A stretch of 64,000 nt of DNA from contig OZ024741.1 in the NCBI GenBank assembly GCA_964016885.1, positions 69,812,001 through 69,876,000 on the forward strand, written 5' to 3'. The stretch comes from Eledone cirrhosa (taxonomy: Eukaryota). Positions within the stretch are counted from its first letter, which is position 1, and every line of letters starts with the position of its first letter. Below the pieces are notes generated by a model, which was not told the DNA's origin, made no database searches, and worked only from the letters and a program-made list of their open reading frames with translations. The translations under genes were made by a program, and so were the position numbers. Positions 19,063-49,908 of this stretch are shown here, in pieces.

Positions 19063-19466
19063 AGAAGCGGGTAGCACACACATCTAGGACCACATACAAC
19101 ACATAATCAGATAATACACACATCTATGACCACATACAACACATAAGCAGGTAATACACACATCTAGGACTACATGCAACACATAAGGAGGTAGCACACA
19201 CATCTAGGACCACATACAACACACAGGCAAGTAATACATACATTTAGGACCACATACAACACATAAGCAGGTAATACAAACATCTAGGACCACATACAAC
19301 ACATAATCAGGTAATACAAACATCTAGGACCACATACAACACATAATCAGGTAATACATACATCTAGGACCACATGCAATACTTAAGCAGGTAATACCTA
19401 CATCTAGGACTACCTACAACACACAAGCAGGTAATACATACATCTAGGACCAAATACAACACACAT
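19063..19466. repeat. 40-bp minisatellite (~10 copies) inside the hAT
   Basis: Unit ~ACATAAGCAGGTAATACACACATCTAGGACCACATACAAC. Confidence 0.95.
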
Positions 19467-20517
19467 TGTATCATGTGCTACGGACGACGCTAGAGCAATG
19501 GTCAGCCAACATAAGGGTTTCGTCACTCTTCTGAAGAGAGAAAATCTATCTGTATTTGTTGTTCATTGTGTCATTCATCGACAACACTTGGTTGTGAAGA
19601 AACTCAGCAAGCCACTGAGCAAGTCCTTGCAGGTGGCCCTTGATGTCATCAATTTTATCAAACGGCATTCCCTCAATGAACGAATTTTCCGGCAACTGTG
19701 CCAAGATAATGACGAAGAATTCGTCAAGTTGCTCCTTCATAATGAAGTGAGGTGGCTTTCAAAGGGCAACTGCCTTACTCACTTCTTTGAACTGTTTGAC
19801 TCTATCATTGAGTTTCTGCGAGGACGCAACACAGAACTGTACAAGAAAACCCTCGATGTGAGGAAAAACTGCGCCTACCTCACCGACATCGTCAACAAAT
19901 GCAATAGCATCATTTTGGCTTTGCAGGGGAAGAAGATCACCTTGCTTAAAGCAAGGAATGCTGTGAAAACATTCCTGGCCAAATTGGATGTCATCAAAAG
20001 GAATCTTTGTTGACGGGAATTCTATAATTTTCCTAGTGTCGCCAATGTTCAAAACATTGTAAGCGATGACCAACTCCAAATTTATACCGCTCACCTCCGT
20101 GCGCTACAAGACAACATGAGAGAACGGTTTGTCGACCTTTTGCCGATGGACATCCCAATGTGGGTAGCAGATCCCTTCACAGCTAACGTCGATGATTTGG
20201 ACGTTATATTTCAGGAAGAATTCATTGAACTTCAAGCAGATGACATGATCAAAATTAGATTTCCCAAAATAGGTGAACCCCTTTTTTGGATGCAAGAGGA
20301 AATTCAGCGTCGATTTCCACACCTACATGCAGAGGCTAAGAGATTTGCTCTGCCTTTTCCAAGCTCATACTTAGTCAAGAGGAGGTTTGGTGCTGTTTCC
20401 AGACTGCACAGTAAGGCTCGCAACCGCTACAATGTAATTACAAGTGGAGATCTTACAAAAATCCAGCTTGACGTCAAAGAGTTAGCTAGACTCAATAAAG
20501 TTCAAGGGTCCCATTGA
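19467..20517 (+). pseudogene. hAT transposase remnant (N-terminus lost, stop at 20011-20013)
   Basis: CATDDARAM, HCVIHRQHL, LLHNEVRWLSKG, AYLTDI, LPFPSSYLVKRRF (catalytic E replaced by K), QGSH end; typical of the ZBED8/SCAND3/Buster family. Confidence 0.9.
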
Positions 20518-21699
20518 AATGAGGTCAAAGTTAAAGTAAGTTGATTTATCCGAAAACTTAGATATGCTATTGTTACAAAGCAAACTAACAATTTTTTATA
20601 TTTGTAGTTGCAGTCTGACTGGACTGGAAACCATCTACTACAATTCACTTACTCATTTGTTGTATATATTTTACCATTTACTAATAAATATACCCTCCCG
20701 TGTGGTCATGAAAACCCTCTTCTGTGGTCTCTAAGCTCACAAAGCAGAGGGGACATCAAGTTAGATATCAACATTTATTCTGTCTGTTTCATTAAAGGGA
20801 AAATTGGAAAGCTTTGAAATGATATAATTGCCACTTTCTTCCAGATAAGAGCACTCTTTGGATAGACAGAGTTGCTCTTGTATAAATGTTCAAAATAGTT
20901 GGTATCGCCTGGTGGGAATATAACAAATTCAACTGGTCCTTATTCATAAAAAAGAACATTTATGTTCCATTTTTTGAAATTTATATATTTCCTTTCAAGG
21001 AATATATTTATACTCCCAGCTGCCTGCAATGGTATCTTTGGAATATTGTTAATCAATTTTTTAGTAATCTACAGATATCAAAATCAGTAGTATATTGAAA
21101 AATGGAAAAATAGGGTAGGGGGGCGTTTCGTGATTTCGAGGGACAAAAGGGGGCGTTTGGCCTAAACGGGTTGAGAACCTGTGCTTTAGATGGTAACCAC
21201 TATTTTCAAAATATACCAGAGTGACAAGGAAAAATAACCCAGTATCAACCAAGGAAACGAACAACATGACGAAGTGGGCTAGTAACGAGGCAAAATAAAC
21301 CAGTCACTGCCTGGGGACGAAAAACAAGACGAAGTATAATCGTTAGATAATACACGATAAATTACAGGAGAGGAAAGAAAATGACAGACACGTACCTGTA
21401 GCGATATAATGAAACAAAATAGAGGAAATCTCTCTTAAATGAATTACAACAGCCAAGTTTTTAGACTGAAAGCAAAAATTGCGCAACACACACACACACA
21501 TACATGCGCATATATATATATACACACACACGTACCCACACACACACACGTACACACACACGTATATATATATATATGAAAATAAAGTATTATAATCAAT
21601 AAGAAGCATTGTGAGATATGTAATAAAAGACTGATACGATTTAAAAGGCTGGTACAATGTGGTAGAAATATATAAAAGGAAAAGAATGACAAATAAGAC

Positions 21700-21985
21700 A
21701 AAACAATGTGATTGTCTAATCAATAACGCATATGTGATCTACAAGGTCACATGCAAAAAAAATATGGCTCCTAGTGCATCGGAAATGCCATCTGGATTGT
21801 GAACATAGGGATCAAGGAGCAAGTAACGACGAGATCTTCTGTTAAAACATACCTTGACATGCCGCAGCTAAGAGATTGGGGTTACCATAGAGTCGATGTA
21901 AAGAAATGTGGACAATTTAAGAATCAAAGAGGCCATTATCATCAACCAGCAAAAAACAGAGATAAATAAACAGATTGGAAATGCA
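21700..21985 (+). pseudogene. Degraded PLE GIY-YIG fragment related to the intact element
   Basis: CLINNAYVIYKVTCK..IGIKEQ..RNVDNLRIKEAIIINQ..IN aligns with AYVVYRLECDK..RIKEH..RNLGNLRIKEALII..IN. Confidence 0.75.
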
Positions 21986-22279
21986 CGAAGCAGATTGGCT
22001 ACTGTAACGATTTCACGCATAAGTATTTCAGATACGTAGACCAATTAAGGAAGAACACATCGATCGTTCGTTTTTGTCTTGAACCGCTTCCGTTTTACAT
22101 TTAAAAAGAAAGTGATAACCCTGAAATACCATTTTAAAATATACTGGGTTAAACATTACTTTGTTTTGTTTTATTTGTCATCATTTGAGCATTATATATT
22201 TCTAGCGCATTGTACCGACATTTTGAAACTTATAAGTCATATCTAAATCTGTATATATATATATATATATAGTTATGCA

Positions 22280-22345
<66 letters not shown>

Positions 22346-22357
<12 letters not shown>

Positions 22358-24174
22358 AAGAATCAAAGAGCTGTTCAAAACATTATTGTGCTTACAGCTG
22401 TTTCCTCCAAACCGAGGTTTGGATTCTTCGGAGCAATTTATTAATGCATGGACAGTTATATGACCTCCTTTTCAGCCGAGAGACATACCGATCCATATTC
22501 AAACATTGTGGGTCAACATTCATTACAGAATTTAGAGTGGCAGTACACACTTCGAGATTACATTTATATTAAGAGGTACAATCAAAAATCAAAAATACAG
22601 GTTAAAATACAACATGAAGATAAGCGGTTATATAGTGGAAATGTTATGTGTGGCACGCATGTGCGTCTTGTTTATATAGTGTGGCAGAGAGATATGTGTG
22701 GTAGAGGCACTTAGGTAGGTAAACAAGAGTGTTAGGTTGGTAGATCTGGTGGCAAATTCTTTATATGATTGATATAGTCTGTGTGTGGAGAAATGTTATA
22801 AGCATTAAAAATAGTGCAAGCATTAAAAGTGTTAAAAGTATTGGAGATGCACAGCGAAGGGCTGTCAAGTATTTCATGTACTTCGACATTTTCATGGTCA
22901 GGGGAGTGTATTTTTCGATTATATGCCCCTCACATAATCCACGACAATTCGATATTGAGCGTTTGACAATCCAGTTAGAGATCGTAGTCTGGTGTTCTTT
23001 AGTTCAATACAGGAGGCTGTTACGTTTCGAGAAACGCCATTGAATACCACCCGGAAGTGTGTGTGTGGCTAAGGGGAGTTAATGCATGCGGGGAGGTAAC
23101 TCCGGGGTTTCTATACCTAGCTATTAAAATGTGTCACAATGTAGACCCTAAATTCTATGGTGATGCGCATCCTCCAAAAAAAAAAAGGAGGATGCGCATC
23201 ACCATAGAATTTAGGGTCTACATTGTGACACATTTTAATAGCTAGGTATAGAAACCCCGGAGTTACCTCCCCGCATGCATTAACTCCCCTTAGCCACACA
23301 CACACTTCCGGGTGGTATTCAATGGCGTTTCTCGAAACGTAACAGCCTCCTGTATTGAACTAAAGAACACCAGACTACGATCTCTAACTGGATTGTCAAA
23401 CGCTCAATATCGAATTGTCGTGGATTATGTGAGGGGCATATAATCGAAAAATACACTCCCCTGACCATGAAAATGTCGAAGTACATGAAATACTTGACAG
23501 CCCTTCGCTGTGCATCTCCAATACTTTTAACACTTTTAATGCTTGCACTATTTTTAATGCTTATAACATTTCTCCACACACAGACTATATCAATCATATA
23601 AAGAATTTGCCACCAGATCTACCAACCTAACACTCTTGTTTACCTACCTAAGTGCCTCTACCACACATATCTCTCTGCCACACTATATAAACAAGACGCA
23701 CATGCGTGCCACACATAACATTTCCACTATATAACCGCTTATCTTCATGTTGTATTTTAACCTGTATTTTTGATTTTTGATTGTACCTCTTAATATAAAT
23801 GTAATCTCGAAGTGTGTACTGCCACTCTAAATTCTGTAATGAATGTTGACCCACAATGTTTGAATATGTATCGGTATGTCTCTCGGCTGAAAAGGAGGTC
23901 ATATAACTGTCCATGCATTAATAAATTGCTCCGAAGAATCCAAACCTCGGTTTGGAGGAAACAGCTGTAAGCACAATAATGTTTTGAACAGCTCTTTGAT
24001 TCTTATATTTCATATAACTGCTCTGTAAATCATCTGATGTTTTTACATTGAGCTACTTAACTTACTGGTAATAAGGTAGTAATACATTACTGCCTACCAC
24101 TATTTAGGGTGTATGTAAAATACTTATAACTGCATAAGGTTTTGTATTTACATAACCATAGATAGTATAACTAA

Positions 24175-24177
<3 letters not shown>
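22346..24177. mobile_element. Non-coding fold-back element: 830-bp inverted arms around an A11 loop, hammerhead in each arm
   Basis: Arms 22346-23175 / 23187-24016 with one mismatch seen; HHR 23928-23972(+) and 22390-22434(-); right arm runs ~160 bp further; (TA)n on both sides. Confidence 0.9.
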
Positions 24178-24259
<82 letters not shown>

Positions 24260-24263
<4 letters not shown>

Positions 24264-24787
24264 AATAAAATATAGAGTTATTAACTCATATAGATACCCT
24301 GCAATTAACAAGCTCAAAGTATAAATACTGAGCATTATAATATTAATATGTGTAGAAGTAAACACAGTAAACCCATGTCTAAAATTACTAGGGTAGATTA
24401 CACCACAAATGTTATATATCATTCAACCTGAATCATATAGCATGTTACAAGATTTCTTACAAGATTTCTCATACATACCCTATCAATAACCATTTCATCT
24501 GCCGGACAGACTAAAGATTTAATCTGTTTCGCTCTGAATGAATCGTGTTTGTAACAAGTAATCCGTAGGCATTTCGTCAGCGAGAGATAAGACTAAATAT
24601 TACACAACACCTATAACAATAAATTCACTAAAGTTTACACCTCGTGCGTTGAAAGTCATATGCAGTGCGAAATAATAGCCTATTTACACTCATTTTTATA
24701 AGCTCAACAGATAAGGAGCCGAACTACAAATAAAATATAGAGTTATTAACTCATATAGATACCCTGCAATTAACAAGCTCAAAGTAT
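24260..24787 (-). mobile_element. Non-autonomous element with 63-bp terminal direct repeats (period 465 bp) and a hammerhead-like motif (24497-24588)
   Basis: Repeats 24260-24322 / 24725-24787; minus atctctcg-CTGACGA...GAAA-cagattaaa[tc]tttagtctg-TC-cggcagat. Stem II is weak. Confidence 0.7.
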
Positions 24788-25475
24788 GCTTTGCCTGGAT
24801 ACTTAGATGAGAATAGTCTTCCCTGACGACGGAATGTTTCTCTGTATTTTCTTCGGAAAATATATTTATTCCATTCCAGAAACTAATTAGTTGGAAGTGA
24901 TATTTTAGTAAGTAAGTTAATTTTATAATTTTCTTATTTTACGTCTCTCATATTATTGTTCTGCAACCCCATGCATTGAACCACAAAGTTACTAAGACAA
25001 AACCTATATATTTGCTAGCATTGATATGCATCTGTATGTATATATATGTTACTAGATATTAATTCTTTATAATTATCTCCAAATTATTTGTCGAGCAATA
25101 TTGGCCATGACTGCTGCTATGGTAGCAGGCAAGCCGCTGTCTTATTAGCAAACCACTTTCCACTGATTGACCTCGATGTCACGTGATTGATTCTTTTTGA
25201 ATTTGCCACCGACGCAGAGGCAGTGATTTTCTCAATGGCTAGGAATTCAGTCCAGGCTTTGCTATTTTCTATCCACTGAATTATTTTTTAATAAGTTTCC
25301 AGAGTCCACGCTTTGCCTGGATACTTAGATGAGAATAGTCTTCCCTGACGACGGAATATTTCTCTGTATTTTCTTCGGAAAATATATTTATTCCATTCCA
25401 GAAACTAATTAGTTGGAAGTGATATTTTAGTAAGTAAGTTAATTTTATAATTTTCTTATTTTACGTCTCTCATAT
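24788..25475 (+). mobile_element. Retrozyme-like non-autonomous element: 166-bp direct repeats (period 522 bp), each with a hammerhead
   Basis: Repeats 24788-24953 and 25310-25475; cttcc-CTGACGA-c-ggaat..attcc-a-GAAA-ctaattag-TT-ggaag at 24818-24897 and 25340-25419. Confidence 0.85.
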
Positions 25476-25676
25476 ATCTATATCTATATATATATATATT
25501 TATCTATACTTTATAAAGTCTATGTTTATAAAGTATTTCGGCTCTGTAATATACTTGTTATTTTACATTGAGCTATTCTCATACTTGTAATTGGATAATA
25601 TTTAATATTACTCACATTTTGTGTATATATATATATATATCTGGTGGTGTCCAGCAGAAGCAGGGGGGGGGGACAA

Positions 25677-25921: not shown

Positions 25922-26004
<83 letters not shown>

Positions 26005-26139
26005 TAAAATATATGACCCCGACGGCAGAGCTCAAGCCGTTTCGACTAAATTAGAATTTTTAGCCTAAGTATTGAGTACTCTGGTGCGTTATGGTCCATC
26101 TGGTTCCTTACCACAACTCCTTCGTTATATATATATATG

Positions 26140-28577: not shown

Positions 28578-28638
<61 letters not shown>

Positions 28639-29550
28639 CGGCGACGAATAAGTTTTGCGAGGTTTTTGATATGAAATCGTGTCGAAATGGTAACATTGAG
28701 GACCGAATAAATTAAATTAACCGATATAAAAGATACAGAAGCGATTACCAACCAAACAGTGAGTGTGTACTGTTATTAATTCTGGCAATATTATTACACA
28801 AATGGTGGATTGGCAGTATCGGTAGAGAGTCGGACGCCATGCTTTCCAGCATAGTTACGTCCCTTTACGATCTGAGTTCAAATCCCGCCGAGGTTGATTT
28901 TTGCCTTTCATCCTTACGGGGTCGATAAAATAACGTACCAGTAATGCACTGGATAATTGCTGGCCTTGTGCCTAAAGTAGAAACAATTATTACACAAATA
29001 TGACCCTCCCCAAGTATACAATATATAAATATATATATATATATATATAGATTATTTATTTATGTTCAAAAGCACTCCCTAAGGTTTCAAGGACCGATAT
29101 TGACCATATCTCCAGAATGTAAGAGGGATCAAAATTGTGAGTGTATAAGATACCATTAAAAGTAATGCTTGCTAAAAACGCTAGTTTACGAAAAACGTAT
29201 TATGTCAAAGGGAAATAACAACAGGATATAAATTTAAAAAGCGCGATCGTACACGTCTTAATGTTCATATGCTACAGCAGAAGTATTGTATTATGTGGTG
29301 GAATGTAATATAGAGATGGTGATATGTATGGAGTGGAGTAGTATTGAAAGTGTATTGTATTATGTAAGTGTGGAAAGTCGTGTGCACATTTAACAAAGTT
29401 CTCAGGGAGACTCAGTGAGTCAGTGTTTGTGACAATACTGCTGGCCCTTTGAAATACAGATACAAGTAATTTTTTTATAGTTGTGTGGCTTAGAGGTGGC
29501 GAAATAAAGTGTCTTGCTCGAGGACACAATACCACTAAGCCACCAGTCTT

Positions 29551-32122: not shown

Positions 32123-33285
32123 GATAAATCTACCAAGAGTTTACGGTAGTGTCCAATCCGTATGAAGAACTCAATGTAATCCGGATATCATGGAAAGAAG
32201 AGATGCATTCAAAAATCACTTTCGGTGAAAGATAAACGGAATACAGAGTCAAGATAAAATATTTAAAAAATAATGAATAAAACAATGAAACAGTTCCTTA
32301 TATTAAACAAAAAAAGTTCATTATTTAACGATCGTTTCTAGGACATATATGTGTTAGAATTGGCATGCATATTCAACAGATCTATGTACAAAATTATACA
32401 AAATTATACAAACTATCAAATTTAATATACATACCAACACATACATATGCCGTCTTCAGAAATAATGTATATATATATATAATAATGTATATATATATAT
32501 ATATAGGAAAAAGTATGACCCCGACGGCAGAGCTCAAGCCGTTTCGACGGCTATTTCTGGACCAGAAATAACCGTCGAAACGGGGTCATACTTTTTCCTA
32601 TTTCCCACTCTACTACCCTAAGTATTGAGTACTCTGGTGCGTTATGGTCCATCTGGTTCCTTACCACAATTCCTTTGTTATATACATATATATATATATA
32701 TGGGAGGAGGAGGTTATAGTTCACTTGAAGCATTGTGTAATGAGGTATAAACGTTAGAATATGTGTAATAAGGCCAAGACAATGCAGATATGGACATAGA
32801 AAAAAGAATGCAATAGTGAAAGATATTGATGAGAATTCGTCTTTCACCTTGAATTTATTTAAATGTCCTTAATTTTCGAGATAATATCTCTTCTTCGGAG
32901 GGAAGTAAAAGTCTCAGACCAGCGTCTAAATTTCCAATGAAGCCATGCTGACCGGAAATAGTATAGAGTTCTAACTTTAATATCAAAGAATTAAAATTAG
33001 GTGGGTAAAGAGTAGTCTCCCTTTAAGAGGGGTTTGTTTATGTTTTTGTTGTGTTTTTTTAAATTTTATATGCGTGCCTGTATATGTGTGTGGGAGAAAG
33101 CATGAAGGTGTAGGTATGTGGGTGTGTGTGTGTGTGAGTGTGGGAAGATAGGTCTAATCGTAAAAGTGGGGGGTAGGTGTTATCTGGTGTTAGAACTGGT
33201 TTTGTGTGTGTATGTGTGAGGGAGAATAAGTGGAGATGTGCGCGTGCGTGTGTGTGGGGTGTGTAAAGTGGGGCTAGAGGCCCTA

Positions 33286-35417
33286 TCAGGTTATAAATTG
33301 GGTGTTGAGCTCTAGTCTATTATTGATTGGTGGATGTGTTCTATCTATAATGAGTGCTTCCTTGATTCTAAGATTGCCGAGGTTTCTTTCCTTAGTTTCT
33401 ATCCTAACTGTTATGTTTTTATCAGTGTTTTTGCATTTAACTGGGTGTTTCTTAAATGAGGAAGCGTTAGTATTGAGGTGTTCTTTTATTCTTATGTGGA
33501 GTGGTCTGGTGGTGCTACCTACGTAGAAGTTGTTGCATTTGTCACACTCTAGTCTGTAAACTACGTAAGCCTGGTGGCATAGGTCTGTGTCGTTGATGGG
33601 GCAGTTGGCTAGTCTGCAGCAGTTGTCATGTCTGGTGGAGTGTCTCTTAGCTAGCCGTCCACGCAAAGAAGGACCCGAATGGGCCAGTTGAATATCCAGA
33701 CCTTCTCGTCTGATGGCTCTGCGGATGGCTGTTGTTGTTTCTTCACTGAAGTGTGGGAGCTTCAGGAAGCAAGTGTTAGTGCCTCGGGTGTGGTGTCCTC
33801 TGTTCTTTCTGGCACGGTTTGTGGTGGATGTCGTGTATCCGTTCAGTTTGAGTACTTCCAGGAAATGTGTGGTGTGTGTGTCTCGGTCTCTGGCGTCGGT
33901 GCATTTGTTCTTGATACGTGCCAGTTCGTTCTTTATGTATCCGAACTTGGCACCGAGTGGGAGGGCCGATCTGAAATGTACGAACAGGTCCCTGCTGGCG
34001 GCTTTTTTATAGAAGCAGGTGTGGATGTTGCCTTCCTCTGTTACCCTGAGTTGGAAGTCCAGCAGGGATAGGGATCCGCGGTCATCGGGGTGTTCTATGC
34101 TGAACTTTATACTGGCGTCCATGCTGGAGAATGTTGTGTATATTTTCTCTGCCTCCTCACGGGATGATGTAAGGATGAGTATGTCATCTACATATCGGGT
34201 GAAGAAGGCATGGGAATGGCAGGTGTTGAGGGCTCGGCATTCTAGTTGGTTCATGTAAGTGATGGCCAGCAGGCCAGAGAGGCTGGATCCCATGGGTAAT
34301 CCTGTTGTCTGTCTGTATGTGTGGTGGTGGAAGGTGAAGTACGTGTTGTCGACTGTGAAGGACAAAAGTTGGTGTATGTCCGTCGGGTGGAGGCCGTAGC
34401 AGTGGATGTTCTCTGCGACCACGCAGTCCGTCAATAAATCGACAGCTGGGTGAGCGGGGACTGTAGTGTAGAGGGAGACAACGTCGAGGCTAAAAGCGTA
34501 TTTATTAAGTTTAAGTTGTTCTGGCTGGAGTTGGTGTAATCTACGTATAACTTCGTCGGAGCTACTGACATGTCCGGGGAAGGTGGAGAGTAGAGGCTTG
34601 AGGACCTGGGAGAGAAGCCAGGAAATTTTGTATAGGGGTCCTTCTATGCTAGAGACGATGGGTCTTATATGCGTCTTAGTGCTATTCTTGTGGGTCTTGA
34701 TGAGGTGGTAGAAAGTGGGCAGTCTGCTATTTCTAGTGGTGTAGTTGAGTTTAATTTTATTCGGGAGTTGTCTTCTCCTACAGATATCGAACCAAATGGA
34801 GTTGGTCTGTTTTTCGATTTGGGCTGCGGTCATGTCCGGGATCACTGTGTACAGTTCACTGTCGCTTAGGTGTTCGAAGGCTAAGTTATTGTATGTGGCT
34901 TGAGAGATGACGCAGAACTCTTTACCTTTGTCGGATGGTAAGTAAATAAGTTCTTTATTCCGTAGGTTCTTCAGGGCGAGTTGTTGTGTCCTGGAGAGGT
35001 TAGGGGCCATCTTCTTCTGTTTCCGTAAGATGTTAAATACGGAATGTTTTAGCCTCGAGAGTTTTTCTTCCAGCTCGCGGTTGGCGGGCGGTGGATAGAG
35101 TGGGCGATCTAGTTGGTATATCGGGAATCTGGGTGTGGTGGATTCCGTGGTGTTGTTGTCGAGAGTCGATATCCATTTCAGTTGGTAGGCAGTCCGACAG
35201 AAATTCGTTTCTATGTCGAGCCATAGTCTGTCGTCCAGTCTCTGTTTCAATATGAACTTGGGACCCAGGCTGAGGAGGTCTAATTCCTCTCGGGAGAGGG
35301 ATCCTGTCAAGTCTGTGACGAGGTGTTTTGCGTCAGGTGTGTTGTTGGTCGGGGTGCCGCTAGGTTCGGTGTTGGTAACGTATTGTTCGCCTCTGTTGGT
35401 GTTTAGCGTTGGGATGT
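33286..35417 (-). CDS. 5'-truncated second copy of the PLE RT/GIY-YIG ORF
   Basis: ORF 33286..35310 matches the C-terminal ~674 aa of the plus ORF; the N-terminal ~150 aa are missing. Confidence 0.9.
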
Positions 35418-35479
35418 GTCCATATCTGCATTGTCTTGGCCTTATTACACATATTCTAACGTTTATACCTCATTACACA

Positions 35480-38062
35480 ATGCTTCAAGTGAACTATAAC
35501 CTCCTCCTTTCATTACGCCTGAGCCAGGCCCAGTTCACAACTGTAAAGAAACTCTTCCAGCTATCTGAAAAGCGCGCCAAAGCCGGCTGCCAAATAAATT
35601 TCCTAAAACGATGCCTGAATAACAACATCATTCCCAAAACCATCAAAAATTTACACCTACCAACATGCTTCAAATCACCAGGCCTCAAACGATCACTCAG
35701 TTACATACAAAAATTCTGCCTAAGAAAACTCATACAACACCTACACCGCACGCTACAACATCACATACGGACTATCTCCAGCCTTGTACCACAACTCGCT
35801 GAAACCCCAGAACCTCTGTCCAAGGTCATCTCCGCCACTATAGACAGGTCATACCACCACCGCCGAGACTACGAGAAAATACGCCTAAAACAAAAATTTC
35901 TCAAACTCAGGACGGCCAACTGTCTTAACAACATCCCAACGCTAAACACCAACAGAGGCGAACAATACGTTACCAACACCGAACCTAGCGGCACCCCGAC
36001 CAACAACACACCTGACGCAAAACACCTCGTCACAGACTTGACAGGATCCCTCTCCCGAGAGGAATTAGACCTCCTCAGCCTGGGTCCCAAGTTCATATTG
36101 AAACAGAGACTGGACGACAGACTATGGCTCGACATAGAAACGAATTTCTGTCGGACTGCCTACCAACTGAAATGGATATCGACTCTCGACAACAACACCA
36201 CGGAATCCACCACACCCAGATTCCCGATATACCAACTAGATCGCCCACTCTATCCACCGCCCGCCAACCGCGAGCTGGAAGAAAAACTCTCGAGGCTAAA
36301 ACATTCCGTATTTAACATCTTACGGAAACAGAAGAAGATGGCCCCTAACCTCTCCAGGACACAACAACTCGCCCTGAAGAACCTACGGAATAAAGAACTT
36401 ATTTACTTACCATCCGACAAAGGTAAAGAGTTCTGCGTCATCTCTCAAGCCACATACAATAACCTAGCCTTCGAACACCTAAGCGACAGTGAACTGTACA
36501 CAGTGATCCCGGACATGACCGCAGCCCAAATCGAAAAACAGACCAACTCCATTTGGTTCGATATCTGTAGGAGAAGACAACTCCCGAATAAAATTAAACT
36601 CAACTACACCACTAGAAATAGCAGACTGCCCACTTTCTACCACCTCATCAAGACCCACAAGAATAGCACTAAGACGCATATAAGACCCATCGTCTCTAGC
36701 ATAGAAGGACCCCTATACAAAATTTCCTGGCTTCTCTCCCAGGTCCTCAAGCCTCTACTCTCCACCTTCCCCGGACATGTCAGTAGCTCCGACGAAGTTA
36801 TACGTAGATTACACCAACTCCAGCCAGAACAACTTAAACTTAATAAATACGCTTTTAGCCTCGACGTTGTCTCCCTCTACACTACAGTCCCCGCTCACCC
36901 AGCTGTCGATTTATTGACGGACTGCGTGGTCGCAGAGAACATCCACTGCTACGGCCTCCACCCGACGGACATACACCAACTTTTGTCCTTCACAGTCGAC
37001 AACACGTACTTCACCTTCCACCACCACACATACAGACAGACAACAGGATTACCCATGGGATCCAGCCTCTCTGGCCTGCTGGCCATCACTTACATGAACC
37101 AACTAGAATGCCGAGCCCTCAACACCTGCCATTCCCATGCCTTCTTCACCCGATATGTAGATGACATACTCATCCTTACATCATCCCGTGAGGAGGCAGA
37201 GAAAATATACACAACATTCTCCAGCATGGACGCCAGTATAAAGTTCAGCATAGAACACCCCGATGACCGCGGATCCCTATCCCTGCTGGACTTCCAACTC
37301 AGGGTAACAGAGGAAGGCAACATCCACACCTGCTTCTATAAAAAAGCCGCCAGCAGGGACCTGTTCGTACATTTCAGATCGGCCCTCCCACTCGGTGCCA
37401 AGTTCGGATACATAAAGAACGAACTGGCACGTATCAAGAACAAATGCACCGACGCCAGAGACCGAGACACACACACCACACATTTCCTGGAAGTACTCAA
37501 ACTGAACGGATACACGACATCCACCACAAACCGTGCCAGAAAGAACAGAGGACACCACACCCGAGGCACTAACACTTGCTTCCTGAAGCTCCCACACTTC
37601 AGTGAAGAAACAACAACAGCCATCCGCAGAGCCATCAGACGAGAAGGTCTGGATATTCAACTGGCCCATTCGGGTCCTTCTTTGCGTGGACGGCTAGCTA
37701 AGAGACACTCCACCAGACATGACAACTGCTGCAGACTAGCCAACTGCCCCATCAACGACACAGACCTATGCCACCAGGCTTACGTAGTTTACAGACTAGA
37801 GTGTGACAAATGCAACAACTTCTACGTAGGTAGCACCACCAGACCACTCCACATAAGAATAAAAGAACACCTCAATACTAACGCTTCCTCATTTAAGAAA
37901 CACCCAGTTAAATGCAAAAACACTGATAAAAACATAACAGTTAGGATAGAAACTAAGGAAAGAAACCTCGGCAATCTTAGAATCAAGGAAGCACTCATTA
38001 TAGATAGAACACATCCACCAATCAATAATAGACTAGAGCTCAACACCCAATTTATAACCTGA
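35480..38062 (+). CDS. PLE polyprotein: reverse transcriptase + Cys linker + GIY-YIG endonuclease (~860 aa)
   Basis: PSDKG, FYHLIKTHK..RPIVS, SLDVVSLYT, QTTGLPMGSSLS, RYVDD, LSLLDF; endonuclease VVYRLECDKC..YVGSTTRPLHIRIKEH..KEALII..IN. Residues before 35417 in the ORF track are read-through of the inverted arm; ATG 35480 is the first Met inside the element. Confidence 0.93.
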   Translation: MLQVNYNLLLSLRLSQAQFTTVKKLFQLSEKRAKAGCQINFLKRCLNNNIIPKTIKNLHLPTCFKSPGLKRSLSYIQKFCLRKLIQHLHRTLQHHIRTISSLVPQLAETPEPLSKVISATIDRSYHHRRDYEKIRLKQKFLKLRTANCLNNIPTLNTNRGEQYVTNTEPSGTPTNNTPDAKHLVTDLTGSLSREELDLLSLGPKFILKQRLDDRLWLDIETNFCRTAYQLKWISTLDNNTTESTTPRFPIYQLDRPLYPPPANRELEEKLSRLKHSVFNILRKQKKMAPNLSRTQQLALKNLRNKELIYLPSDKGKEFCVISQATYNNLAFEHLSDSELYTVIPDMTAAQIEKQTNSIWFDICRRRQLPNKIKLNYTTRNSRLPTFYHLIKTHKNSTKTHIRPIVSSIEGPLYKISWLLSQVLKPLLSTFPGHVSSSDEVIRRLHQLQPEQLKLNKYAFSLDVVSLYTTVPAHPAVDLLTDCVVAENIHCYGLHPTDIHQLLSFTVDNTYFTFHHHTYRQTTGLPMGSSLSGLLAITYMNQLECRALNTCHSHAFFTRYVDDILILTSSREEAEKIYTTFSSMDASIKFSIEHPDDRGSLSLLDFQLRVTEEGNIHTCFYKKAASRDLFVHFRSALPLGAKFGYIKNELARIKNKCTDARDRDTHTTHFLEVLKLNGYTTSTTNRARKNRGHHTRGTNTCFLKLPHFSEETTTAIRRAIRREGLDIQLAHSGPSLRGRLAKRHSTRHDNCCRLANCPINDTDLCHQAYVVYRLECDKCNNFYVGSTTRPLHIRIKEHLNTNASSFKKHPVKCKNTDKNITVRIETKERNLGNLRIKEALIIDRTHPPINNRLELNTQFIT

Positions 38063-38446
38063 TAGGGCCTCTAGCCCCACTTTACACACCCCACACACAC
38101 GCACGCGCACATCTCCACTTATTCTCCCTCACACATACACACACAAAACCAGTTCTAACACCAGATAACACCTACCCCCCACTTTTACGATTAGACCTAT
38201 CTTCCCACACTCACACACACACACACCCACATACCTACACCTTCATGCTTTCTCCCACACACATATACAGGCACGCATATAAAATTTAAAAAAACACAAC
38301 AAAAACATAAACAAACCCCTCTTAAAGGGAGACTACTCTTTACCCACCTAATTTTAATTCTTTGATATTAAAGTTAGAACTCTATACTATTTCCGGTCAG
38401 CATGGCTTCATTGGAAATTTAGACGCTGGTCTGAGACTTTTACTTC

Positions 38447-38481
38447 CCTCCGAAGAAGAGATATTATCTCGAAAATTAAGG
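38447..38481 (+). ncRNA. Minimal type I hammerhead ribozyme in the PLE 3' region (mirror copy 32867-32901, minus)
   Basis: cct-CCGAAGA-a-gagat[att]atctc-GAAA-at-TA-agg: stem I cct/agg, hairpin stem II, palindromic AATT in place of stem III; predicted cut after 38478. Core has the U4C variant. Confidence 0.75.
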
Positions 38482-38595
38482 ACATTTAAATAAATTCAAG
38501 GTGAAAGACGAATTCTCATCAATATCTTTCACTATTGCATTCTTTTTTCTATGTCCATATCTGCATTGTCTTGGCCTTATTACACATATTCTAAC

Positions 38596-38633
<38 letters not shown>

Positions 38634-38781: not shown

Positions 38782-41700
38782 CTACATTCTTTATATTTGT
38801 CTCAGAGACAGCTGATCCATCATCCACTGGCCTTCTCTGTGGCTCTAAGCCAGCAGAATCATAACGACCAGACTGCTCCTTGGCAGTGTAATTAGGGGCT
38901 CTAACCCTAGTGCTGTTAGATCGACTCTCCATATTTCTTTTCAATGGCTGACAATACCTTACCGGCGCCACTCGAATAAGGTAGTTATTTAACCCATAAA
39001 TGGAGCCCTAACAGGTACTACCACCCCGGGCCAGGGCAGACCTGGGAGTCATGACAACTAAGGGGTAACTCCACATTCCCCACATCTCCTGAACTCCCGA
39101 ACTGGAGCCTTGCCACTGGATGTAGTTTAATGTCATACCCAGGACAAATATAAAGAATGCAGTTTTGTCCTGCAGAAGAGCCATCAAAATGGGCACTTTG
39201 AATGTGAGGACTATTCGGACGCTGGAGAAGAGAGAGGAGTTGGGACATCTGTTCGAGGAGAGTGGTATACAGATACTTGCGATCCAAGAACACAGGATTC
39301 TACACGATGAGCCCGTGAGGAGTGTGATGATTGGGAAGAAGAGTCAGCTCATCACTACATCGGCAGTGAAGAACACAACAAATGCTGCAGTAGGAGGAGT
39401 GGGTTTTGTGTTCAGTGCAAAAACCAATCTGTTGGTGAGGGAAATAATGCCTATCTCCCCGCGAGTGTTGAGGGTGACCTTCAATGGAAACCCAAGACTG
39501 ACAGTCATCTCAGCCTATAGTCCAACCGAGGGGGACAGCGATGTGAATGCGGAAGAGTTCCATGAGGTGGTGTGTAGAGCTGTCAACACCACTCAGGCAC
39601 ACAATATCCTGCTTGTTTTGGGGGACTTCAATGCACATCTGAGTAAGGAGGGCAGTGAAGATCCTTGCTGGTACTTCCATAACAACACCAACCGAAATGG
39701 AAGACTACTGAGAGACACCCTGCTGGAGGCGAACTTGATGGCGACCAACCTAAGGTTTAGGAAGAATCTGGGGGAAGATGTGGACCTACATCTCAGATAT
39801 GCACCTGTCCAAGTCCCAGATTGATTTCATGCTGGTGAGGAAAAAGTGGCGGAATAGTGTTCTGAACACGGAACCATACTGCTATTTCAGTACACTGGGT
39901 AGTGACCACCGGCTTGTTATGAGTGAGGTCCGCGTGAGCTTAAGAAAGAGCAAGGCTCAGCCCCGGAGAACAATCTATGACTGGGGAGCTTTCAAGGAAG
40001 ATGATAAGCTACAGGAGAGGTTCACAGTGGAAGTGAGAAACAGGTTTAGTGCTCTGTGTGGAGAGTCAGAGGAGAGAGAGATTGGATGGACTGAGGAGAG
40101 TGTGACGAGGAGGTACGGGCACTTCACCAATGCAGTGGCGGAAGCAAGTGAAACCCTGGTGCCGAGGAAAAAGAATAAAGGGAAGCACGTCAGCTCTGCA
40201 AACCCAAAAGTGTGTGCAGCCAGAGAACACCTGAAAGCTGCCAGGGACCAATTCTATGCTGATCCTACGGAGGAGAGGATGGAGACTGTGGAGGTGATGA
40301 GGGAAGAGCTCTGTACCGCTTACACTGAGGTCAGAGAGGAGGCACTGATAGAGAAGATCAGAAGTGTGGAGGGAGTGGTTGACAGATCTGGATGTAAGGA
40401 GAGCTGGATGATCATCAGTGAGATCACAGGGAGGAAGAGAAGGTGTTCGAGTCAGATCCAGGGAACGGGGCCCGAGGATAGGAAGAGGAAATGGCTAGAC
40501 CATTTTAGGACCCTACTAGGAGAGCCACCCTCCACAGCCCAGAGCATTGGGGAGATCAGGCGGCTGTTTGAGGAACTGGATGTTGAGACAGAGCCCTTCA
40601 CCAGAGAGGAGCTTCAGAGAGCCAAGAAGAGGATCAAGGAGGGCAAGGCTCATGGAGAAGATGGAGTGGCATCAGAGGTGATGAAGAGGTGTGATTTTGA
40701 TGATATCATCCTGGGGTTCTGTAACGGGGCACTGGAGAAAGGAGTTGCCCCGAATCAGTGGAGGATCAGTAACATCGCCCCAGTGCCAAAGAAGGGAGAT
40801 CTCTCTAACACCAACAACTACCGGGGGATCTCACTGACGTCACTTGTGGCAAAGACCCTCAACAGGATGATTCTTAACAGGATCCAGCCTAAGATGGAGA
40901 AGAAGCTCAGGGACAACCAGAACGGCTTCAGAGAGGGTAGATCAACCACCAGTCACATCCTGATGCTGAGGAGGATATTAGAGGGAGCTAGAGCAAAGTG
41001 CCTTCCTGCGGTCATGGTTTTCATTGACTTTAGGAAGGCCTTTGATTCTGTGGACCGTTACTGCCTGATGAAGGTCTTACAGGCTTATGGAATCCCCAAG
41101 AAGATAGTGGACCTGATATCACTGCTCTACACCAACACCAAAGCCCAAGTCATTACACCTGATGGGATGACAGAGTTCATTGAGATACTGGCTGGAGTGC
41201 TCCAGGGAGATACATTGGCTCCCTACCTTTTTATCATCGTAGTGGACTATTGTATGCGCCTTGCACTGGAGAAACACCAGGACTCTGGCTTTACTGTAGC
41301 ACCGGCTCAGAGCAGGAGAGTTAAGGCGAAAAAGGTATCGGATGCTGAGTTTGCCGACGACAGTTTTGGTGACAAATACAGTGAAGGAGGCAGAGGATTT
41401 GATGCGGGAGGTTGAGACTGTGTCGATGAGTGTGGGGCTGAGAATGAATGAGACTAAAACAAAATATCTGGTAGAGAATGTTGAGAAGCCAGAGGGGATC
41501 ACTAATGTAGGCGGGAAGCCGCTGGAATTGGTTGAGGACTTCCTGTATTTGGGAGCAAAGATTGGGAATACGGAAGATGATGTGATTGAGAGGAAGAGCA
41601 AGGCCTAGGCGGCGTGCCACAGCTTGAGATCGGTGTGGAAGTCGGACCTTCGTAGAGACCTGAAAATCCGCCTCTTCATTGCTGTAGTGGAGTCTGTGCT

Positions 41701-42120
41701 GCTGTATGGGTCTGGGACTTGGACACTGACCAAGAAACTCACTCAGATGGTGGATGGGTGCTACACGAGAATGCTGAGGATGGTTCTGAACATTAATCAG
41801 TATACACTGAGGATGAAAAACTCAGAGCTGTATGGGAGCATCCCAAAAGTCAGCTCAAAAGTGACACAGAGGAGACTGAGGTTAGCTGGACATGCTCACC
41901 GACATCCAGAGTTGACATTGCACTCAGTACTCCTTTGGGAGCCCCTACATGGACACACTAGAAGTGGAAGACCAAGGTTAACGTATGTTGATGCCCTAAG
42001 GACAGACAGTGGTCTGTTGGAGATGCAGGACATGGCAGCGATAATGAGGGACAGAGACCGCTGGAGAGAACTCGTCCATCGATCTCGGGAATTTTACCCG
42101 CCTTAGATAGATAGATAGAT
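38781..42120 (+). mobile_element. Near full-length RTE-type non-LTR retrotransposon (APE + RT), inactivated
   Basis: Begins right after (TA)n, ends in (TAGA)n/(TA)n, and carries one long disrupted ORF. Confidence 0.9.
39189..42106 (+). pseudogene. RTE-type LINE ORF with frameshifts (~39775, ~41360) and an internal stop (41606-41608)
   Basis: GTLNVRT, LAIQEHR, SAYSPT, LGDFNA, QIDF, SDHRLV (APE); NYRGISL, QNGFREGRST, FIDFRKAFDS, GVLQGDTLAPYLF, EFADD, FLYLG (RT); LLYGSGTW..LRLAGH..GRPRLTY C-terminus. Confidence 0.92.
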
Positions 42121-42342
42121 ATATATATAACGAAGGAAGTGTGATAAGGAACTAGGTGCACCATAACGCACCAGAGTACTCAATACTTAGGGCAGTAGAG
42201 CGGGTAAAAAGAACATTTTCAAGACCCCGACGGCAGAGCTCAAGCCGTTTCGACGGCTATTTATGGACATAATTACATAAAACGTCCAGAAATAGCCGTC
42301 GAAATGCCTTGAGCTCTGCCGTCGGGGTCTTGAAAATTTTCC

Positions 42343-47980: not shown

Positions 47981-48052
<72 letters not shown>

Positions 48053-48467
48053 AAAGTTCTATTTAAAATTGTTGGGATACAACAAGTAAATATTTTTATA
48101 ACTGATATAAAGCACTCGACAATTATTTGGAGTAGATATACGATATTAATAAATGGAAACTATATTTATAAAACCATATTTATTTCATTATACATATTTC
48201 AGGGATACCAAATTAAATCATGGTATGCCTTCATCAGATAAAATACAATATATAACAGTTTTACAAATAAGCTTTGATGTACCCTTTTAAAATGCAACCA
48301 TTATTTTTGGAAGCCGTCTGGATAGGGTACGTCAAAGCTTATTTGTAAAACTGTTATATATTGTATTTTGTCTGATAAAGGTATACCATGATTTAATTTG
48401 GTATCCCTGAAATATGTATAATGAAATAAATATGGTTTTATAAATATAGTTTCCATTTATTAATATC

Positions 48468-48470
<3 letters not shown>
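47765..48470. mobile_element. Three copies (+, -, +) of an AT-rich hammerhead-bearing tail around TA tracts
   Basis: CTGATGA-aggcat..atccc-GAAA at 47791-47845(+) and 48188-48243(-); mutated CTGATAA at 48369-48422(+); fold-back centre ~48276-48332. Confidence 0.75.
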
Positions 48471-48843: not shown

Positions 48844-48892
<49 letters not shown>

Positions 48893-49113
48893 GTAAAAGG
48901 TAAACAGAAATAACAACACAATCGGTACAATATATGGAAGGAATATATTAGGTTAACACTTGAAATAGTAGGAAGAGGGTCTTAACGTTTCGGACGCTAG
49001 TCCTTCATCAGAAGAAAGAATGAGAAATAGGATAAATTGAATGGACGGGCTGGGTGGAATTGGAAAAAATGACTTTAGATAAAAATAACAGGTCCATTTT
49101 TGTTGACATCTGT

Positions 49114-49206
49114 ATTTTATTAAGACTGAATAGTGATTCTTGTTACTCTGGAGTTTCGCCTGTTTATCGCAGGGTCATCAGACTCACTATTCAGCCTTAA
49201 TAAAAT
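49114..49206 (-). ncRNA. Hammerhead closed by a 23-bp extended stem I
   Basis: gt-CTGATGA-c-cctg[cgataaa]cagg-c-GAAA-ctc[ca]gag-TA-ac; flanks 49114-49136 / 49184-49206 are complementary. Confidence 0.75.
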
Positions 49207-49908
49207 GAATATTAAGACTCTACTTCGGTATTGGAGTACTCCATTCTCTCAGCCGTCGACCACATATATATATATATATATGTATGTATACACACACACA
49301 CACACACATATCAAATATATAAGAACCGCTGCTCGGAAGAATAAAAGCAAAGTTAACCTCGGTAAGATTTGAACCCAGGGTTGTAATGAAATACCACAAG
49401 GTATTTTGTTAGACAATCCACCACCATAATAACGGTCAAATTGATAATAAAAACGTTATTTATAATGTAACTCTTTAAATTCTTAATTATTTACAAAATT
49501 AAATAAAATCCACTGTCAGTGTATTTTAATAGACATGGGATCATTAAAGGGTTTAATCGAAGTATTGGTAGAGAAACAATAAATATAAAACACAAGCATA
49601 AGAGAGACAAAATTTAGACCTCCTCTCTGAGTGGAATATCACCTCCACGTTCACCACAGCGATGATCATGTCACTCCAACCACGACCACCACCATCACCA
49701 CTATCACCACAGCGATGATCATGTCACTCCAACCACGACCACCACCATCACCACTATCACTAGAACGACAATCATGTCACTCCAACCACGACCACCACCA
49801 TCACCGCCATCATCACCACCACCACAACGAAGACCACCACAGCTCCTATCAACACCACCACCACCACCACCACCAACACCATCACCACCTCAACCCATAT
49901 CATTATGG

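Follow-up and report, generated by a model that had tools for sequence, protein, structure and literature searches.

Penelope-like elements (PLEs) are the retroelements closest to telomerase. Here, we describe an insert in a stretch of 64,000 nucleotides from the genome of Eledone cirrhosa (NCBI GenBank assembly GCA_964016885.1, contig OZ024741.1, positions 69,812,001 to 69,876,000 of the forward strand; hereafter the window, whose own numbering is used throughout), in which repeats of two unrelated, PLE-like families are joined 5' to 5' within a TA tract. As far as the accessible parts of the sources describe them, PLE insertions include inverted, 5'-truncated copies in (TA)n targets, often with a tail at one end only, and arise by a mechanism that is called undefined; the origin of their tandem and inverted insertions, in particular, is described there as an unsettled question (PMC8557442). 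Head-to-head junctions of PLEs have been ascribed to self-priming on antisense RNA (PMC3846280). The elements described here share with these published PLEs the partial tandems, the head-to-head inverted 5' copy, the (TA)n target, the tail at one end and the hammerhead in the repeat, and an element of the window that carries reverse transcriptase (RT) and GIY-YIG domains has the same layout. The published pairs, in the same accessible text, are same-family pairs with an optional tail of 30-40 bp, whereas here the tails are mostly about 30-165 nt, tailed and untailed arms complement each other almost strictly, the pairs do not show the fold-back geometry, and the locus joins two families that are unrelated. 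In the openly searchable literature we found no mixed-family PLE pair, no two-ended PLE model and no counted one-tail rule, although these may exist in subscription papers, older PLE reviews or supplements.

Two further systems are relevant. The PLE protein of PAc Poseidon was found in vitro to cut AT-rich DNA and to extend both strands, with RT starting at two sites that flank the tail, and it is predicted to form a dimer (PMC11167929). One RNA was used in that work, and the available part of the report mentions no difference in start site between the strands, no coupling of the two starts and no products from mixed RNAs. For L1, twin priming involves one RNA, and dual priming with two RNAs is, in the part of the source available, postulated only (PMC2837659); extension of one L1 break on two different mRNAs has also been described (bioRxiv 10.1101/2024.12.14.628481). 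In L1 twin or dual priming, as is proposed for the locus described here, both ends of the break prime cDNA and the cDNAs would be joined 5' to 5'. According to the same partial accounts, the L1 nuclease is of the APE type, priming takes place at a poly(A) site and secondarily at a variable internal one, and the arms, formed by a minority route, do not overlap, whereas in the present families the two putative starts are fixed, the arms have sequence in common and the two-ended form predominates.

At this locus, an arm of family A, with a period of 465 bp, lies on the minus strand (24262-24787) and abuts bluntly, at 24787/24788, an arm of family B, with a period of 522 bp, on the plus strand (24788-25473). 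The A arm (526 nt, or 1.13 units) is 5'-truncated at unit position 405 and ends at the downstream, tailed one of two recurrent 3' ends of its family (unit positions 391 and 465), the 'tail' of about 74 nt between them occupying 24262-24335 on the minus strand. The B arm (686 nt, or 1.31 units) is 5'-truncated at unit position 359, a point unrelated to that in A, and ends at the upstream, untailed 3' end of its family. Both outer ends are canonical 3' ends and lie on TA: the left one on (TA)42 at 24178-24261, the left side of the target and common to the tailed end of a palindrome at 22-24 kb, and the right one at 25473, passing into an imperfect TA stretch (25474-25499) that forms the right side of the target. 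Each arm contains an internal duplicate, 24260-24322 repeating 24725-24787 exactly in A, and 24788-24953 repeating 25310-25475 in B with the exception of one base. Judged by these copies of the locus itself, there is neither overlap nor spacer at the junction; compared with other family members, at most two letters could be assigned to either side, and the junction shows no microhomology. No similarity was found between the A and B sequences. The original prediction had described the periods, strands, spacer-free join and 3' ends in TA, and its geometry is correct to the base. Since both arms are members of large repeat families, the insert is not a chance arrangement; it is a real feature made from known kinds of elements.

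Searches of the 3.0-Gb genome returned 3550 candidates for the whole 1.2 kb and 1703 for A alone, and among the 40 scored in each search only this locus contained an A/B junction or both halves. The junction is absent from the other scored copies; thus, the 1.2 kb does not recur among them as one fixed element, which agrees with the original prediction. A census was assembled from 320 loci (referred to by L numbers) and the window, merged into 279 regions of 1.87 Mb in total, in which 1197 arms with a median length of 272 nt were annotated and a third family, G, with a period of 593 bp, was included. Genome searches favour young, long copies, a bias that affects all samples except a set of 80 evenly spaced 10-kb stretches.

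A and B are mutually independent mobile families. Both consist of tandem, non-coding units, dispersed in many copies and in arrays of several units, and both carry the insertion marks of 5' truncation, partial tandems, an inverted 5' copy and a (TA)n or AT-rich target. By these sequence features they look like non-autonomous PLEs, or non-LTR (long terminal repeat) retrozymes. Tandem hammerhead repeats have been argued to be non-autonomous PLE derivatives (bioRxiv 10.64898/2026.07.22.740005, available in part), and non-LTR retrozymes, in the descriptions accessible to us, are similarly built of tandem units that do not code for protein, each holding a type I hammerhead, and have, as in B, a short palindromic helix III; those descriptions do not deal with insertion geometry, tails or mixed pairs. 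The B motif matches the PLE-type hammerhead described in the accessible part of PMC4209133: it is of type I, with a core intact in 146/176 copies, compensatory pairs in stem II and a palindromic stem III. The B arm of the locus carries two copies on the plus strand, at 24818-24897 (core at 24823, predicted cut after 24892, palindromic stem III) and 25340-25419 (core at 25345, predicted cut after 25414). The A motif is hammerhead-like, with three extra nucleotides after CUGANGA and, across the family, an 8-bp stem I and a long stem III; 45 of 61 cores are intact and stems I and III are conserved. Compared with the described retrozymes, its core junction is non-canonical and its stem III long. 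The A arm of the locus has only one such motif (24497-24588, minus strand; core from 24580, predicted cut after 24505), with two mismatches, in stems I and II. An Rfam search with gathering and E-value thresholds gave no hammerhead match for A or B, and minimum-free-energy folding of the motifs was no better than that of shuffled sequences (z from 0.19 to -1.31); therefore, the ribozyme structure rests on covariation. The label 'ribozyme', given earlier to both elements, suits B with its type I core and covariation, while A is only a hammerhead-like variant and Rfam recognizes neither. No similarity was detected between A or B and the coding PLE of the window, and no A, B or G end was found to follow a PLE reading frame in the 1.87 Mb, a genome-wide search not having been made. 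In many A copies (e.g. L054:1991-2175) the tail region is interrupted by 185 nt of a common dispersed repeat, which the copy at the locus lacks.

Every family has two recurrent 3' ends downstream of the ribozyme with the tail between them, at unit positions 391 and 465 in A, 522 and 120 in B, and 244 and 407 in G, and the tails measure about 74-82, 120 and 163 nt, respectively. By analogy, the two ends may be the start sites of RT. Each resolved same-family pair consists of one tailed and one untailed arm (27/27 in B and 25/25 in A, with 7 and 9 pairs unresolved), and a larger set gave 33/33 for B and 20/20 for G, or 53/53 with four unresolved. The same rule held for 221 of 230 same-family segments drawn from 22 de novo families and for 51/52 in the 80 evenly spaced stretches. 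Manual relabelling gave 232/251, the exceptions being mostly internal TA runs or one tandem family (not each verified), and a reference-free count of 227 palindromes between TA tracts yielded 155 asymmetric, 12 symmetric and 60 neither. Single arms of both end types also occur (in B, 15 untailed and 10 tailed). Within the window, the rule is obeyed by the same-family pair at 22351-24177 (left arm untailed, tail of about 165 nt on the right, one mismatch in 822) and by the head-to-head PLE at 32702-38598 (about 40 nt of tail on the left arm and none on the right, one mismatch in 2672). The unequal ends of these two palindromes had been attributed to separate RNAs; this was not borne out, as the ends are those of the known PLE tail, and the single mismatches, taken as another sign of two RNAs, fit one template with later mutation. 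Further small TA-bounded elements of other families with one tailed and one untailed end are seen in the window at 26003-26125, 28638-29028, 32506-32685, 42130-42342 and 48050-48468.

Self-priming by fold-back predicts nested arms with 5' ends close together, a prediction examined in 46 clean pairs. None of the 46 had an untailed arm beginning 0-60 nt within the tailed one, and in only two did the 5' ends share a register and lie no more than 60 nt apart; the offsets spread over the whole unit and the arm lengths were uncorrelated (rho -0.23, p=0.12, n=48). Each arm therefore most likely started at its own end of the target, and self-priming is largely excluded for the same-family pairs of these families, in keeping with the two-ended priming of the original prediction. 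Exact junction microhomology was resolvable in only 8/54 pairs.

The arms of a pair are also alike in lineage. At lineage-diagnostic sites, the discordance of the two arms of a B pair was 0.13, compared with 0.085 for tandem units and 0.41 for separate loci, and the corresponding values in G were 0.078, 0.014 and 0.34. Under a null in which two RNAs are drawn at random, the arms would be as unlike as separate loci; pairs with at least two fixed differences numbered 1/18 in B (null 57%) and 0/6 in G (null 66%). Since the arms share lineage, the usual event appears to use one source. The simplest reading of a same-family pair is one RNA primed twice, which accounts for the tail rule, although the same likeness could come from a pair of RNAs of one locus or from subsequent gene conversion. 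Thus, of the earlier proposal, priming at both ends is supported by the tail rule and by the failure of fold-back, while a separate RNA for each end of the same-family palindromes is contradicted by shared lineage alleles and tail coupling. In one same-family B pair only, L005, the arms disagree at two lineage sites, which makes it a candidate for a within-family event with two RNAs. A better match of the arms in a 3'-anchored register, seen in a smaller set (p=0.006), was rejected, having disappeared in a larger one (104/6376 versus 112/6107, p=0.41).

Most young arms occur in pairs. Of the 175 young B and G arms, 116 belong to a head-to-head pair of one family and 38 are solitary, their 5' end lying on TA, while another 20 abut something different and one lies at a region edge; the excess of 5'-to-5' orientation that had been foreseen is present in these 116. 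Pairs of mixed family were sought among 600 two-ended segments, of which 210 were scored for coverage, 26 were coverage-clean and five were kept: this locus, L008 (B/G), L185, L089 and L206. With L174 and L191, added after genome searches, the total is seven, so that six mixed 5'-5' pairs exist elsewhere, which supports the original prediction. L171, L196 and L054 are unsure candidates and remain uncounted, and the other clean candidates were rejected as nested insertions, residual TA, palindrome remnants, or unassigned or non-PLE repeats (six of them dropped on earlier annotation). Two more arrangements, also outside the count, deserve mention. In the window, at 48881-49263, a hammerhead-bearing minus-strand arm is joined to a partly self-inverted second repeat, possibly a mixed pair or a deletion remnant; and at L126:3108-3950 a young B arm stands head to head with what seems to be 3' untranslated sequence from a different coding PLE (L271 holds a relative), whose start site is undefined.

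Mixed pairs had been expected to obey the one-tail rule. However, only four of the seven, this locus among them, are tailed/untailed; L089 and L206 have two untailed arms and L191 probably two tailed ones, so co-insertion was not favoured by this test, and mixed and same-family pairs differ in tail status (Fisher p=0.003). Orientation is the better discriminator. Of the contacts that young B and G arms make with other elements at their 5' ends, 5/8 are head to head (4/7 without this locus). Random landing beyond the TA tract would give head-to-head contacts in 0.11-0.24 of cases, and the p value for the excess is 0.004-0.06. Mixed pairs are thus rare and modestly commoner than sequential insertion predicts.

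We lean, somewhat beyond an even judgement, to the reading that the insert is made of two unrelated PLE-type ribozyme repeats that were joined 5' to 5' in a single event, each end of the target having been primed on a different RNA (dual priming). In this scheme, both strands within (TA)n may have been cut in trans by the GIY-YIG nuclease of a PLE, by analogy with PLE activity in vitro, and each 3' end would then have primed cDNA at one of the two fixed start sites of the family concerned. The cDNAs stopped at unrelated points, as observed in the truncated arms, and would finally have been end-joined. Usually, both ends would be served by one RNA source, at an upstream and a downstream start in a manner resembling twin priming, which would give arms of the same lineage and one tail per pair; a small share of events, this locus among them, would draw on a second, unrelated RNA for the other end. 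A wider formulation, which we hold more tentatively and just short of an even judgement, is that PLEs insert through a protein dimer working at both ends, whose two active sites take the upstream and downstream starts of one RNA with the tail held between them, mixed pairs being a two-RNA by-product. Such a reaction would account for inverted copies and one-sided tails without self-priming.

The rival to be taken most seriously is sequential insertion, in which A, as a single arm or an A/A pair, came first and B later entered the adjoining TA, the joining at its 5' end deleting the TA and any intervening arm. We regard this as a genuine possibility, though a doubtful one. TA tracts are reused repeatedly as targets, 38 of the 175 young arms stand alone with their 5' ends on TA, and remnants are found in L123 and L095. 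Several observations also tell against a joint origin of the two arms or limit the case for it. Sequential insertion with target deletion does occur in this genome: at two loci, L003 and L009, the 5' end of a B arm directly adjoins another element's 3' end without any TA between them, and L100 has a B 5' end inside a palindrome of another family. A mixed pair can be mimicked in this way. Tail status (4/7 in mixed pairs) cannot part the two explanations, because uncoupled two-RNA priming and sequential insertion both predict random status, and the departure from the tail rule is in keeping with sequential insertion too. Private substitutions number 4/465 in A and 0/522 in B (Fisher p=0.049), a hint that the A arm is older than the B arm, to be read with the greater diversity and sparser sampling of A. 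In L185, similarity to the nearest compared relative is only 92% for the partner arm and 99% for the G arm. The excess of head-to-head contacts rests on seven or eight events, an assumed deletion length and an incomplete arm annotation, and its null is rough. Neither a shared recognition motif nor a common helper PLE for A and B was found in the 1.87 Mb, the 3'-register signal mentioned above was not reproduced in the larger set, and a target-site duplication is unreadable within TA. On the other hand, random landing would give three to eight times as many antisense (tail-first) neighbours as clean head-to-head ones, whereas three and five, respectively, were seen. By internal duplicates both arms look young (0/63 differences in A, 1/166 in B): the A duplicate is identical over 63 nt in a copy that ranks among the less mutated of its family (10th-25th percentile), and the B unit is 99% identical to its nearest copies. 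Overall, the age evidence at the locus is equivocal.

The other explanations carry less weight. Two neighbouring, independent insertions might have been fused later by deletion, for example through collapse of unstable palindromic arms; elements are dense in the census, and the pairs that break the rule with two untailed arms, L089 and L206, involve older families. Yet the youth of B, with no private changes, leaves little time for such a deletion, and the junction is without microhomology, which makes this course quite unlikely. Even less probable is self-priming by fold-back on antisense RNA followed by a template switch to a second RNA. It has the published PLE head-to-head model behind it (PMC3846280, as far as its available text goes), and 5' ends fall within 20 nt modulo the unit length in 6/46 pairs, but the absence of nesting, the two close pairs in the same register and the offsets spanning the unit speak against it, and a template switch leaves unexplained why each arm starts at the canonical 3' end of its own family. 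Least credible of all is an assembly chimera at a repeat junction. No contig bridging 24787/24788 was present among the listed contigs of runs X3-X5, which derive from one sample, perhaps not the assembled individual, and drop rare variants; against a chimera stand the six comparable mixed junctions elsewhere, the exact family 3' ends on both arms, and same-family opposite-strand joints at other sites that are confirmed in independent short reads. Contigs and RAD reads neither confirmed the junction nor showed an allele with only one half; runs X1 and X2, with small shares, were given no weight. A contig of run X3 joins an A position (window 24447) to a B position (25194) with one letter between them, possibly another A/B junction in that sample.

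Several other elements occur in the window. The head-to-head PLE used above for comparison has an open frame of 854 amino acids at 35498-38059 on the plus strand, with RVT_1 and GIY-YIG domains and a cysteine linker before the nuclease, and an inverted partial copy at 33286-35469 on the minus strand; a 94% relative is present in L089, and a motif scan detected no hammerhead in the window element. At 21580-22230, two diverged inverted repeat ends were seen by eye around a short piece resembling a GIY-YIG end. Broken frames at 39126-42106 presumably resemble the endonuclease and RT of a long interspersed nuclear element, and those at 19435-20517 we take to resemble a DNA transposase. In the census, repeats of fixed length with TA on both sides and two different constant ends (end classes 20/49, 36/93, 27/100, 47/114 and 83/87; e.g. 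L194:3932-4159 and L190:1510-2126) appear to be a different kind of TA-targeting element.

The E. cirrhosa genome offers thousands of young insertions. Three signatures that can be counted in them, namely the single tail in each pair, the unrelated truncation points and the common lineage of the two arms, favour two-ended priming; mixed pairs may serve as a marker for two-RNA events. Both propositions make specific predictions that are testable in the existing in vitro PLE system. If they are true, unrelated RNAs would become fused by this route into new chimeric repeats, palindromes would arise in the DNA at microsatellites across the genome, and mixed pairs would be a direct genomic record of dual priming, a process that, in the L1 literature available to us, has only been postulated.
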